A stretch of 64,000 nucleotides of DNA from Candidatus Brocadiia bacterium. Its GTDB lineage: Bacteria > Planctomycetota > PUPC01 > DSUN01. The notes beneath the pieces were generated by a model. It was not told the origin of the DNA. It did not search any database and worked only from the letters and a program-made list of their open reading frames with translations. Position numbers and translations under genes: made by a program. Positions 13,567-19,264 of this stretch are shown in pieces (positions within the stretch are counted from its first letter, which is position 1; every line of letters starts with the position of its first letter). The stretch lies in contig JBKHIY010000013.1 in NCBI GenBank assembly GCA_046538415.1, forward strand, positions 747 through 64,746, read 5' to 3'.

Positions 13567-14661
13567 CTATCCCTCCTCGAGCACGGAGCGAAGCTGAGGC
13601 ACCGCCGCGGGATCCCCCTTGGGCGGCGGCACGGTGTCGATGAGCTGGCCGATCAGGTCGTCGGTGCTCACCCCCTCGGCCTCCGCATTGAAGTTGGTGA
13701 TGATCCGGTGGCGGAGCACGGGGTAGGCCACGTGGCGGATGTCCTCGCAGGACACGTAGTAGCGCCCGTGGAGCACCGCCCTGGCCTTGCCGCCCAGGAT
13801 CATGTACTGCCCGGCCCGGGGGCCGGCGCCCCAGCGGACGTAGCGGCTGATGAACTCCGGCACCTCGCCCTTGCCCACCCGCGTGAGGCGGGCGAGGGCC
13901 ATGGCATAGCGGATCACGTGGTCGGCGATGGGCACCTTGAGCACCAGCCCCTGGAGGCCCACGATCTGGCGGGCGTCGAGCACCTGACCCAGGTCGGCGC
14001 CAAACGGCGCCGTGGTGAGCCGCAGGATGTCGAACTCCTCGTCCTCCGTGGGATAGTCCACGGTGATCTCGAACATGAACCGGTCGAGCTGGGCCTCGGG
14101 GAGGGGGTACGTGCCCTCCTGCTCGATGGGGTTCTGGGTGGCGAGCACGAAGAAGGGGTCGGGCAGGGGCCGCTTCTCGCCCCCCGCGCTCACCTGGTGC
14201 TCCTGCATGGCCTCCAGGAGCGCGGCCTGGGTCTTGGGCGGCGTGCGGTTGATCTCGTCGGCCAGGATCACGTTGGCGAAGACGGGGCCTCGCAGAAAAC
14301 GGAAGGAGCGCTCGCCCGTCGCCTTGTCCTCCTGGATCACCTCCGTGCCCGTGATGTCCGAGGGCATCAGGTCGGGGGTGAACTGGATGCGGCTGAACGA
14401 CAGGTCGAGGGCCTGGGCGAGGGTGCTCACCATGAGGGTCTTGGCCAGCCCGGGCACGCCCACCAGGAGGCCGTGGCCGCGGGCGAAGATGGCGATGAGC
14501 AGGTACTCGACCACCTGCTCCTGTCCCACGATCACCTTGCCCAATTCGCCTCGGATCGTGTTGTAGGCGTCGTTGAGCTGCTCCACGGCATCCAGGTCTT
14601 CCTGGCTGGGCTGCGGGGCGGAGCCGGCGGATTGGGCCTCGTGCTTCTCGGGCTCCGACAT
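13567..14661 (-). CDS. MoxR-family AAA+ ATPase
   Basis: 364 aa. The Walker A motif is GVPGLAKT and the Walker B motif is [11 protein letters not shown]. It has the MoxR/RavA architecture. Confidence 0.9.
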
Positions 14662-14695
14662 GGCGTGTGCTCCTGTGTTGGCGGTGCGGGCCTGA

Positions 14696-17600
14696 TCATT
14701 GCTGAGCGGCGATGCGGACGATGCGGAAGCGCGGCGACTCGCCGGGCACCTCGCCCAGGATCCGAGGGGGCCGCACGGCGGGCCGGCGCGTCTCCTCCTC
14801 GACCACGGCGTAGAGCGAGCGGCCCAGGAGCTGGAGGGCGTGGAGCCGACCCTTGCCCACGGACACCTCCTGAGCCTCCTCGCCGGTCCGCGGATCCAGG
14901 GTCAGCACGGCCGCGGCCTGGGCGTCGACTACGTCGCTGCGGCTGAGGCCGAGGAAGAGCGCCTGGGGAGCAGCGCACCAGTCGTCCAGCGTGGTGTCCC
15001 GCTCGAGGGCGTACTCCCAGGCGACCTCGCCGCTACGGGCATCCAGGCGCACGAGGGTGGCCACGCCGGCTCGGCGCGTCGCTGCGTAGAGAGCCTGCGG
15101 GGTCAGGGCAGCCCGCTGGAGGCTCTCTCCGCGCTGGAGGGCCAGCGACCAGAGGGCCTCGCCGCTGTCCGCCCGGCGGCATTCCAGGACCTCCAGGCCG
15201 CGGCCGTCCTCCCCGTGGGCCACCAGGCGCTGCCCCGCGACCCACAGGCGGCGCGAAGCGAAGTTCTCCACCCGCCGGCTCCACACCAGCTCCTCCGCCG
15301 CGGCGTCGTAGCAGCCCAGGGTGGAGCCCATGGCATAGCACAGCCGGCCACGGCCCGCGGGAGCGAGCAGCGGCGGCGTGAGGGCCCGCCGGGCCTCGAC
15401 GCGGAAGAGGAGCCGCCCGTCGAAAGGGTTGAGGATCTCGACGGCCGAGGGCTGCGCGTAGGCCGCCACCAGCCCGTGCTCCCAGAGGGCCAGCCGGCGC
15501 AGCGATGGGCCGGCCAGGGGGCGGGTCCACAGCACGCGTCCCGTCTGGGGGTCGAGCGCGAAGAGCCGCTGACGCTCGTCGGCGATCGCCACGATGCCAG
15601 GGGCGCTGGCGGAGGCCCACGCCGCGCCGTCCGCCTCGAGGCCCCCGGCGCTCTGCTCCAGGGCGAACGACCAGGCCCGGGCCCCCCCCTCGACGCGGAT
15701 GGCGTCGAGGCGCTGCTCGCGCCGCACGAACACGCAGCCGCCGGCCAGCCCCACGAAGCTGTGGGGCTGGAGGTGGAACTCGCCGGCCTGGGTGGGCCGC
15801 TCGCCCAGCTCCAGATGTATCTTGTGCTCCTCGCCGTCCCGCAGGAAGCGCACGGCCACCCGGGTGCCCGGGCGGCGGGCCAGGCAGGTGTCGATCAGCT
15901 CGGTTACGTGGCGCACCGCTCGAGCGTCGAAGCTCACGATCACGTCGCCGTTGCGAAGCCCCGCCCGCGCCGCCGGCGTCCCGTGCACCACGCCTCGCAC
16001 GAGCACCCCGCCCTTGCGGCGATCGGCGTCCAGGATATGGATGCCGATCCACCCCGGGCGGTCGGCCCACCGCAGCGCCCCGTCGGCCGCCTCGCGGCAC
16101 TCGAAGGAGCGGCCCACCAGGAGGAAGAACTCGTCCGCCCCACCGCGGTCGCCCGCCACGTAGAGCTCCGACGAGCCGTATTCCTGGGGCACCCCCCACT
16201 GGACGGCCAGCGGAGGAGCCAGCGTAGGGGCCTCGGCGGGCCTCGGGGCGCGGAAATGCTCGGCCAGGAGGGCCTCGGGCTCGACCTTCGCCGAGGCCGC
16301 ACGTCCGTCCACCACGGCTCGCCACTCGGGGTGCTCGCGCCCCAGGGCGCGCAGGGCGCCGCGGGCCATGGCCCTGGCCCCTGCCCTGGCGTGGACCAGG
16401 GCCAGGCGGTAGAGGGCCTCGGGGGCGTGGGGCGAGGCGGGATAGTCGTGGGCCAGGCGGTGGAGCCACAGCTTGGCCTGGGCGAGCCGCCCGTCGCGCC
16501 GCGCCGCGGCCGCCAGGCCGAGGAGGGCCTGCGGGGCCGCGCGGCTGTTGGGATAGCGGCGCACAACCTCCTGAAGGCTCCGCTGACTGCCCTCGCGGAG
16601 CGCCGCGGCAGCTTCCTGCTCGAACCGCTCGTAGAGCCCCCTGCCGGCCCGGGCCAGCAGGTCGCCCAGCCCGCGGCGGGCCTCTTGCCAGTCGGGCCCG
16701 CGCGGCTCCGCGGCGGCGAGCACATGGTGGTAGGCCTCGATCGCTTCGTCCCATTGGCGAAGCGTGGTGCACAGGCGGGCCACGCGGAGGTGGAGGCACG
16801 GGGCCTCCAGGGGCTCGGCGTAGCGCAGGGCGGCCCGGGCGGCGTTGAGGGCCATGTCGTGCCTGCGGGCCTCCTGGTGGCGGCGCGAGAGGGCGGCGTA
16901 GGAGGCGGACAGGCGTCGGCGGACGTCGCCCAGCTCGCCGGCCGACAGGGCCTCGGGGTGCTGGGCGGCCAGCTCCAGGGTCTTCTCGAACGCGGCGGCG
17001 GCGGCCGCCAGGTCGCCTTCCCACTGGTGCTCCTTGGCCACGGCGAAGTGCACCCTGGGGTCCTGCGGGTTGCGGGCCAGCTCGCGCTCCAGGGCCGGGC
17101 GCGGCTCCAGGGGGGAGAAGACGTTGAGGGTGAAGGGGGTAGCCACAAACAACCTGCCCTCGGCGATCAACAGGTCGCCCGAGGACAGATCGGCGTCCCA
17201 CGTCGGCTCGTGGGTGCTCTTCCACTCGGCCCAGGACGTCTCGGCCAGCTTGTGCCCCGTCCTGGCGTCCAGGAACAGCAGCCCCCCGTCCACGGGCAGG
17301 TGGAGGACGTGGCCGGCGAGGGCCGGCCGGCCCACCACCTCGGCCGGCACGTGGGCCTCCCATTCGAGCTCGCCTTCGGCGCTCAGCGACGCGGCCCGGC
17401 GGCCCGCGAGGTAGACGCCGCCTCGGTCGGCCGCGGCCAGGTAGTGGTGGTCCTGACGTTCGGCCCGCCAGAGGAACCGCCCGGTGGCCAGGTCCAGGGC
17501 GTAGAGGAAGTCCGAGTCGACGGGCGTCACGTAGGCCACGCCGTCGGCCACGACAGGCGTGGGCGTTCGCCAGCCGTCGTGGAGGACGATGCGTCCGGTC

Positions 17601-19264
17601 CGCACCGCGGCTTCGTCCGCCTGGTCGTAGCGAAACAGCCAGGCCAGTCGCCCTGTGGCGGTCTCCGCCGCGGCCACGATGCCCCCGCCCGCGCAGGCGA
17701 CCACCAGCCCATCGCCGGACGCGGGCATTCCCTCGAACCACTGCTGGTGGAGGCCGATGCGGAAGAAGCGGCTGGCCGGACGGCTGCACACGAAGCGCCG
17801 CCACAGCAACCCGCCGTCGCGGGCACGCAGGGCGCACAGATGGTACTCGTGGCCCGTCTCCCCGGCGCGCAGGCCGACCATCAGGCGCTCCCCGCGGGGG
17901 AGTGGCGGCGACACGAACCAGCCGCTGGCCAGCGGCTTGGGCAGATGCTCCTCCGCACCATGCTGCCAGCGCAGGGCGCCTCGCGCCGCGCCCACCGCCA
18001 GCATCTCGCCCACCATCTCCTGGCCGCGCACCCGGTGGGAGGTGCGCAGCATGGGGAAGGAGCAGTAGACCCGCTGGCCCCGGGCCGAGCACCACCAGCG
18101 GCCCACGGAGGACGACGTGGCGGTGGAAAAGGGCTCGACCAGGCGCCCGCTCGTGGGCGGCCAGGGCAGCTCCCACAGCAGCTTCCCGGAGTCCAGGTCG
18201 CGAGCCACCACGCCCCCCCTGGAGGGGTAGATCACCCGCCCCTGTCCCACCGCGGGCAGCACCCACACGGGTGGGCGGTAGGGCCTCGCCGCACGGCGCG
18301 CGGCCTGGCGCCCGGAGCGGAAGGCCGCGGCCTGGGCCACGGCCTTGGCGTGGATCAGATCGGACCACAGCAGGGGGCCTGGGCGGACCGGGGTCGCCGC
18401 GTCGGGCCGCGCCGGGCAACCGCCCGGGTAGGCCCACTCGCTGGCTTCCGTGGCCAGACGGGGCAGGCGGTCCAAGACCTTGGCATACGCGGCGAGCGGG
18501 ATACGCCGGCCGGCCACCGCCAGCGTGGCCCCCGGGCCGGCCTCGTTCGCCGCTCGGCGGAGCAGCGCCCGGGCGGCCGCGGGACGGCCCAGGCGCTGGA
18601 GGCAGGTGGCCAGCTTGGCCGCCGTGGCCACCAGGTCGGTATCCGTATCCGAGCACAGCCGGAGCAGGCGCCGCCAGGCGCGGAGGGCCTGGCCCGCCTT
18701 CCCCCGGGCGAGCCACGCCGTGGCCAGGCGGTCGAGCGCGTCGTCGCCCCAGGAGCTGAGCAGAAAGCGCTGCGCCACGAGCCTGAGCGCGGCGAGGTCG
18801 CCGCTGGCCACCGCGGCGTGGTAGAGCTCCGCCGCCCGCCCGTCCACCGCCGCCCGGTAGACCCGGCGCCCCTCGGGGGGCAGGGCGGCCAGCCGCTCTT
18901 CGACGAAGCTGCGGATAGGCACGTAGCGGCGAGGCTCGGGATGGCACAGCTCGTGGGGAGCCTCGTCCACCAGGCGCTGGTAGAGCTCGATGGCCTGGCT
19001 CCATCGCTCGTCCTGCTCCAGCCGACGGGCCCGCTCCAGGGCCGCGTTGGGCCGGGAATGCGGCGAGTAGTCGGCCGTCACCGCCCCTTCGGGCTCGGCC
19101 AGGCTGGCGCCCGAGGAGGGCCGGGGGGCCGTCGCCGCCAGGCTCCGGCGAAGAGCGGCTGCCAGGCGCCCTCGGGCCGTGGGCTCCGGCTCCGCGCCCC
19201 AGCTCGCCGTCGCTGCCAACAACAAGACCAGCGCGTTGACCGCTGGACGCATGCAGAAACTCAC
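14696..19264 (-). CDS. Giant secreted multidomain protein with TPR-like regions, two PQQ-like beta-propellers and a PDZ domain
   Basis: 1522 aa. The N-terminal signal peptide is [22 protein letters not shown]. Repeated motifs such as ALDxxTGxxLW and AxDAxTGxxxW resemble BamB/PQQ blades. A PDZ-like segment reads [33 protein letters not shown] central TPR region resembles YbgF. Its stop lies 35 bp from the moxR start. Confidence 0.7.

Follow-up and report, generated by a model that had tools for sequence, protein, structure and literature searches.

The 64-kb stretch of planctomycete DNA analyzed here (the window) carries on its minus strand a gene for a MoxR AAA+ ATPase of the MRP subfamily, preceded by a gene for an exported protein of 1518 amino acids (aa), called the giant below, which combines TPR blocks, beta-propellers and a PDZ domain. 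We consider it reasonably probable that this locus derives from an operon widespread in Planctomycetota which was trimmed in this lineage, that the giant is a periplasmic partner or client of the machinery encoded there, and that the VWA adaptors are supplied in trans. The first-pass annotation had described MoxR as co-oriented with a giant secreted TPR/propeller/PDZ protein, which is confirmed by Pfam, by AlphaFold2 (AF2) models and by a conserved signal peptide. It had also proposed that the giant stands instead of the usual VWA partner, and this was not borne out by the related loci. Judged from the gene content of these relatives, the giant is an additional component of a MoxR-DUF58-VWA operon and not a replacement for a VWA partner, and the state of the window clade appears to be derived, the VWA genes having gone from its locus.

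The comparison is based on a MoxR-centered metagenome scan in which the flanks of the 80 closest MoxR loci (60–82% identity) were analyzed by profile searches. DUF58 was found downstream of MoxR in 47 of the 53 loci with at least 1.5 kb of downstream sequence, usually followed by one or two genes of the BatA type, and a collinear giant-family gene lay directly upstream in 21 of the 45 loci with at least 2.5 kb on that side. Where both flanks were readable (38 loci) the giant and DUF58 occurred together in 18, DUF58 only in 14, the giant only in two and neither in four. The two loci with a giant and no DUF58 are those of the window's clade and of a second lineage, L018. Since relatives carry a giant-family gene and DUF58 together, the giant would be an addition to the operon and the window locus a reduced derivative of it.

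The full eight-gene operon is present at L096 (4385–20486 of the closed 4.99-Mb contig ERZ26858887), in the order giant (1497 aa), MoxR, DUF58, BatA-N/VWA/GATase-like protein (737 aa), VWA-like/DUF7408 protein (801 aa), DUF4175 protein (1282 aa), a 329-aa protein and a prenyltransferase-like protein. At L019 the giant possesses a PDZ domain at the same relative position as in the window protein and is followed by MoxR, DUF58 and BatA, which rules out the idea that gain of the PDZ domain was tied to loss of DUF58. Two further loci, L006 and L008, have distant giants (24–27% identity, with TPRs and propellers) followed by MoxR, DUF58 and BatA; at L008 a squalene-hopene-cyclase-like gene is found between the giant and MoxR. 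No description of the giant-MoxR-DUF58-BatA linkage was found in the searchable literature. In the L018 lineage (57% G+C) a 1427-aa protein of no recognizable family (11078–15358) is encoded after the PDZ-bearing giant and MoxR, at the position usually taken by DUF58.

The upstream genes which are collinear with the family profile specify either a short form of about 740–830 aa, consisting of the solenoid and the first propeller, or a long one of ~1500 aa. Solenoid and first propeller (positions 55–720 of the hidden Markov model) form the core common to all MoxR-linked relatives, short and long alike. When 1.84 billion cluster representatives were searched with the N-terminal 735 aa as a single query sequence, 108 matched with E ≤ 1e-30 and 2871 with E ≤ 1e-10, and the matches were mostly about 700–850 aa or about 1400–1700 aa long; from these counts and lengths we regard the family as large and very divergent. 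In an alignment that included the distant giants, every block was too poorly conserved to be used for scanning loci. The window giant belongs to the MoxR-linked family as defined here by its signal peptide, its N-terminal solenoid and BamB-like propeller collinear with the core, and the position of its gene directly upstream of MoxR.

The domains of the giant (Table 1) were mapped by segment-wise Pfam and NCBIfam searches and by two AF2 models built on family alignments (predicted local distance difference test scores, pLDDT, of 84 and 85). Applied to the giant, Pfam recognized PQQ_2 (138 bits, five stretches), PDZ_2, TPR_6/TPR_2 and a YfiO-like region. Nearly all members of the family have a hydrophobic N-terminal h-region; in the window protein no Cys suitable for a lipobox follows the signal peptide. 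Since the signal peptide is conserved in the family and no internal transmembrane-like segments were found in it, we conclude that the giant is exported. With Foldseek, BamB was the best match of both propellers (first propeller E 7e-19, target TM-score 0.72–0.75, ahead of the PQQ dehydrogenases; second propeller E 9e-15). The central TPR block gave sub-threshold NCBIfam matches to tol_pal_ybgF and OM_YfiO, and so resembles BamD/YfiO and YbgF/CpoB, while the PDZ domain gave sub-threshold matches to the PDZ domains of DegP and DegS. The sequence of the PDZ loop, RPGWIGI, does not vary among family members (invariant columns R1065–I1073). We take this loop to correspond to the carboxylate-binding loop of HtrA-family PDZ domains, which by analogy suggests that the giant binds C-terminal peptides.

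BamB, BamD/YbgF and the HtrA-family PDZ domain are thus the best structure or profile matches of single domains of the giant, but these matches fall far below the family cut-offs, and here the domains are fused into one chain with the PDZ domain inserted in a propeller. The likeness to BamB is one of fold only (TIGR03300 66 bits against a cut-off of 285), and BamB's lipobox Cys is missing. Of HtrA, DegP and DegS the PDZ region alone is matched (NCBIfam positions 257–334 of 434), with no peptidase match in Pfam. The giant does not appear to be a quinoprotein enzyme either, because only 85 of the 595 positions of the Pfam quinoprotein profile were matched (positions 52–136); it scored 44 bits with TIGR03075, the cut-off of which is 480, and the target-normalized TM-score of its first propeller with dehydrogenases was 0.34–0.49 against the value given above for BamB. 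We also considered, and reject, a VWA domain hidden within the giant. Segment-wise Pfam at E ≤ 1 gave no VWA match in any segment, and the two confident AF2 models contain none; furthermore the unassigned stretches are shorter than 100 aa, too short for such a domain. This agrees with the first-pass annotation, which had noticed no VWA domain in the giant. Profile matches and models together show the giant to be a Sec-exported, non-enzymatic scaffold in which a pair of BamB-like propellers is combined with two blocks of TPRs and one PDZ domain of the HtrA type.

The window MoxR is, by its sequence, a canonical MRP-type protein. It matches Pfam AAA_3 (211 bits) and AAA_lid_2 (62 bits) and the Cytophaga MoxR of PDB entry 2r44 (280 bits), and its motifs are intact: Walker A GVPGLAKT, sensor-1 TQNP and Walker B ILADE, the last as read from the translation. 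Its N-terminus is hydrophilic and lacks a signal peptide, which places the protein in the cytoplasm. Identity among the MoxRs of the window clade is 75–84%, and the window protein is 60–70% identical to MoxRs which are followed by DUF58 and BatA.

Under the reading that we favor, the full operon would specify, in order, an exported TPR/BamB-like-propeller protein, an MRP-type MoxR, DUF58, a BatA-type VWA protein with two transmembrane segments, a second VWA-like protein and DUF4175. It would be the planctomycete counterpart of the Bat, RL3499–RL3502 and MxaRSACKL systems, which form one class of envelope machinery built on MoxR and VWA proteins. MRP MoxRs act with VWA cofactors (PMC3893208; PMC11432383). 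The periplasmic propeller enzyme MxaF needs MxaR (MoxR), MxaS (DUF58) and MxaA/C/K/L for loading with Ca2+ (PMC12276312), and in the BatA-like protein BB0173 the VWA domain faces the periplasm, TPR proteins being among the products of Bat operons (PMC5700661). With MxaF as the parallel, the exported giant would serve the MoxR–VWA machine as its periplasmic partner, or be its client. Hexamers of MoxR in the cytoplasm would work through inner-membrane VWA adaptors and so favor the maturation or assembly of the exported protein, which would itself bind C-terminal peptides by its PDZ domain and envelope partners by its TPR blocks and propellers. The first-pass annotation had suggested a periplasmic scaffold or quality-control complex remodeled by the ATPase; direct remodeling of the giant is topologically impossible once it has been exported, since MoxR itself lacks a signal peptide. 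In the window clade the giant and MoxR would still be co-transcribed, with VWA adaptors coming from elsewhere in the genome. There is a precedent in Synechococcus, where the VWA genes, if they are used by the MRP-type MoxR SyMRP, lie far off in the genome (PMC11432383); unlike the window MoxR, SyMRP has no conserved exported partner gene adjoining it.

The Mxa system (PMC12276312) shares with the present one an exported PQQ-repeat propeller protein encoded together with an MRP MoxR, DUF58 and VWA proteins, the full set being found in relatives of the window locus, and a cytoplasmic ATPase is combined with a periplasmic propeller protein in each. Unlike MxaF, the propellers described here are BamB-sized, apparently non-enzymatic and embedded in a TPR/PDZ scaffold; mxaJ, mxaG and mxaI are missing, and the window has no equivalents of MxaS, MxaC or MxaL in cis. 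The Bat and RL3499–RL3502 operons also contain an MRP MoxR, and in relatives of the window locus MoxR is followed by DUF58, a BatA-N double-transmembrane VWA protein, a second VWA-like protein and DUF4175. Bat operons encode exported or membrane TPR proteins (PMC5700661). An envelope-related role has been reported for operons of this type (PMC3893208); RL3499 is an MRP MoxR required for membrane integrity and cell morphology (PMC3893208). The present operon differs from the Bat operons in its TPR partner, a giant encoded by the first gene, which has a PDZ domain as well as two propellers and is unrelated to BatC and BatE; the window clade, unlike the Bat and RL3499 operons, retains the giant and MoxR only.

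Several observations weigh against the interpretation of the locus as a trimmed operon served in trans. The window was searched by tblastn with six members of the operon, DUF58 and BatA among them, and its other genes were scanned with Pfam; no gene for DUF58, BatA, the second VWA-like protein, DUF4175 or any other VWA protein was revealed, nor was one found within 8–10 kb in any window-clade locus. We think it more likely that the window clade has its VWA adaptors encoded in trans; their true loss from the window-clade genome is possible, because L018, a second lineage, is also without DUF58. The giant is not obligatory for the MoxR–DUF58 machine, since 14 of the 38 fully readable relatives have DUF58 without it. 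Giants from outside the window clade are only 24–28% identical to the window protein, and the neighbor-joining tree of MoxR, in which the window clade is monophyletic and nested among loci with both giant and DUF58, carries no support values. A role as client is suggested by conservation of gene order and by analogy with MxaF, and the propellers of the giant are BamB-like and not those of PQQ enzymes. Finally, adjacency of giant and MoxR within the clade is by itself weak evidence, because the hydrolase, radical SAM, RodA and PBP2 genes further downstream are equally conserved.

One might expect from the first of these points that the window MoxR functions without DUF58/VWA adaptors, either directly on the giant or through an unrecognized adaptor, for example as a cytoplasmic holdase or unfoldase which keeps the 1518-aa precursor competent for export. 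We regard such a VWA-independent partnership as unlikely. Besides the lack of VWA and DUF58 genes in the window and in all loci of the clade, it would account for a MoxR whose motifs are intact and which is under strong purifying selection despite its missing neighbors, as well as for L018, an independent lineage that likewise has the giant and MoxR without DUF58; chaperone activity without a VWA partner has also been reported for an MRP MoxR (PMC11432383). However, the search covered 64 kb of a multi-megabase genome, and DUF58 and BatA are common in planctomycetes; a DUF58 profile search returned at least 7995 matches, the top entries being from Isosphaeraceae and Pirellulales. The closest relatives of this MoxR are nearly all paired with DUF58, the PDZ-type giant of L019 coexists with DUF58 and BatA, and an exported giant has no feature able to replace a cytoplasmic VWA adaptor.

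Fourteen full-length orthologues of the giant were recovered from metagenomes and from metagenome-assembled genomes (MAGs) labeled Planctomycetota (45–50% identity, 1496–1623 aa), and a scan of genome contigs for the giant family located six loci in five species-representative MAGs, all of uncultured Planctomycetota. The giant precedes MoxR in every orthologous locus recovered, with a spacer of 17–72 nt; the window clade has 12 MoxR tips in the neighbor-joining tree. The order in this clade is giant, MoxR, a gene of 61–71 aa and then, convergently, alpha/beta hydrolase, radical SAM, RodA and PBP2. What lies upstream of the giant varies. Nonsynonymous to synonymous substitution ratios (dN/dS, Nei–Gojobori) were 0.17–0.29 for MoxR and 0.39–0.54 for the giant, estimates in which dS is compressed by the extreme G+C content at third codon positions (GC3). 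Values below 1 indicate purifying selection on both genes, with the exported giant evolving much faster.

The first-pass annotation had raised two doubts about its own proposal. One was that a VWA or DUF58 gene might be found beside MoxR in other genomes with the pairing of giant and MoxR not conserved; DUF58 does occur there, and the pairing is conserved. The other, that the giant could be a fusion artefact or a frameshifted pseudogene, proved groundless, for the gene is intact, its GC3 is uniform, its 14 orthologues are full-length and of like architecture, and dN/dS indicates purifying selection. One giant orthologue, P0016, is aberrant: on a contig of 5.3 kb its last ~120 residues, in place of most of the second propeller, are a truncated Ser/Thr kinase fragment (HRDIK…DFG…APE) which runs to the contig end and is most likely due to chimeric assembly, so that we do not count a kinase among the domains of the family.

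The equal synteny of the whole downstream block within the clade could also mean that giant and MoxR are mere neighbors, left behind after DUF58 and BatA were lost or moved, with no functional coupling. MoxR would then serve other clients and the giant would be an independent periplasmic scaffold, e.g., an outer-membrane-biogenesis or quality-control factor assembled from BamB/BamD/DegP-like modules. All domains of the giant do resemble envelope-biogenesis factors, many relatives have MoxR and DUF58 without a giant gene (14 of 38, as noted), and a distant PQQ- and PDZ-containing protein, P0022, does not adjoin MoxR. We judge this explanation improbable, somewhat more so than a VWA-independent partnership. 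The order giant–MoxR is kept where the giants share only ~25% identity and the other flanks differ; the giant gene invariably comes first in the operon, with its orientation unchanged and little space between genes; and adjacency conserved over so long a term usually reflects co-function.

The combination of a MoxR gene and an adjoining beta-propeller gene in a planctomycete also brings to mind the MoxR-vWA-beta-propeller ternary conflict or defense systems of Kaur, Burroughs, Iyer and Aravind (2020), which occur in planctomycetes (PMC7159879), and the window MoxR has a weak match to Pfam bpMoxR (47.5 bits). These systems require a vWA domain fused to the propeller and often have a variant P-loop, GxxxTAKS, whereas the giant lacks a vWA domain and the window MoxR has GVPGLAKT as its P-loop. 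The AAA_3 match is far stronger (211 bits), effector domains and PADLOC matches are absent, the propeller protein is exported and the neighborhood consists of housekeeping genes. We therefore reject a defense function as very improbable indeed, and return to the trimmed MoxR–VWA operon as the preferred explanation.

At the level of the genes themselves, the window has a G+C content of ~72%, because of which genes were located by third-position GC; both minus-strand genes display a strong coding signal (GC3 0.92–0.95 against 0.41–0.56 at second positions, GC2). The length of 1522 aa originally given for the giant corresponds to the longest open reading frame, from a GTG at 19264, which does exist, but the NCBI record and all homologues start at the ATG at 19252 and the protein is 1518 aa long; the gap before MoxR, put at 35 bp, is in fact 34 nt. 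No terminator-like site was found in this spacer. Two promoter-like sites were found in the region, where 0.0 were expected from shuffled sequences. A promoter-like site, a consensus match only, lies 5′ of the giant gene, and since the two genes have no terminator-like site between them, giant and MoxR are probably co-transcribed.

Table 1. Positions in the window of the giant and MoxR genes, of the predicted domains of the giant and of adjoining features
Feature	Position	Strand	Basis or remark
Exported scaffold ("giant") gene	14696..19252	-	NCBI MFP4056081.1, 1518 aa
Signal peptide, aa 1 to ~20	19193..19252	-	Hydrophobic h-region
N-terminal TPR-like solenoid, aa 26–261	18470..19177	-	AF2 pLDDT >90 over most; Pfam TPR_6/TPR_2/TPR_12
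First BamB-like (PQQ_2) propeller, aa 329–714	17111..18268	-	Pfam PQQ_2 82 bits; AF2 model
Central TPR block, aa ~719–980	16313..17098	-	Pfam TPR_6 and YfiO
Second propeller, first blade, aa 1015–1064	16061..16210	-	AF2 model of aa 982–1518, strands at model residues 34–83
HtrA-type PDZ domain inside second propeller, aa 1069–1149	15806..16048	-	Pfam PDZ_2 59 bits; AF2 model, with the PDZ at aa 1071–1148
Rest of second BamB-like propeller, aa 1160–1518	14699..15775	-	Pfam PQQ_2 78 bits
Giant–MoxR spacer, 34 nt	14662..14695	-	AGGAG at 14670–14674, 8 nt before the MoxR ATG
MoxR AAA+ ATPase gene, MRP subfamily	13567..14661	-	NCBI MFP4056080.1, 364 aa
Sigma-70-like promoter site upstream of giant gene, TTGACT-17-TAAGAT	19298..19326	-	Consensus match only
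DUF1931 histone-fold protein gene, 71 aa	13178..13393	-	Conserved neighbor downstream of MoxR

The giant is not, as had been stated, the only co-directional neighbor of MoxR, for a DUF1931 gene follows on the same strand. This gene has its own promoter-like site (TTGACA-17-TATATA, 13477–13505) and is probably outside the MoxR system. It is found directly after moxR in every window-clade locus and in no DUF58-bearing relative. The product is Lys-rich and matches PDB entry 9qt0 (E 1.3e-13) and, more weakly, the Bdellovibrio histone HBb (8cmp/8fvx, E ~0.02); its sequence suggests a bacterial histone, here from a planctomycete that is uncultured.

Elsewhere in the window, 27518–29569 (minus strand) specifies a homologue of oligosaccharyltransferases from a planctomycete MAG, a multi-pass membrane protein of 683 aa with a Pfam STT3 N-terminal domain (63 bits) and AglB core-like domains. 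The genes at 24328–25314 and 25443–26111, on the same strand, are tandem paralogues with a prepilin-like N-terminal region, DUF1559-like as read from the sequence; their central and C-terminal segments are near-identical, and the first has an extra N-terminal extension. Five coding regions (43232–45094, 46123–48087, 48234–49052, 50751–51635 and 52938–54170) with a GC3 of 0.87–0.92 gave no Pfam match at E ≤ 1e-4.

To our knowledge the operons of MRP-type MoxR, DUF58 and BatA are among the most widespread conserved bacterial operons without a known mechanism, and we know of almost no clients of MoxR machinery outside methanol dehydrogenase. The divergent family of exported propeller/TPR proteins, whose genes come first in the planctomycete operon, offers a concrete candidate for a partner or client of this poorly understood machine. 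If so, the scaffold should misfold, mislocalize or lose partners when MoxR, DUF58 or BatA is removed. A bolder proposition, which we hold to be doubtful, joins two claims: that BamB-like exported propeller/TPR proteins are dedicated clients of MoxR-DUF58-VWA machinery in Planctomycetota, and that the window-clade MoxR is independent of VWA proteins. Were both true, the MxaF–MxaRSACKL paradigm would extend past quinoproteins, and the window protein would be an MRP MoxR which needs no VWA protein and whose dedicated substrate can be identified. As a natural minimal version of the system, consisting of scaffold and ATPase, the window clade bears on whether an MRP MoxR works without VWA adaptors in cis, or without any.

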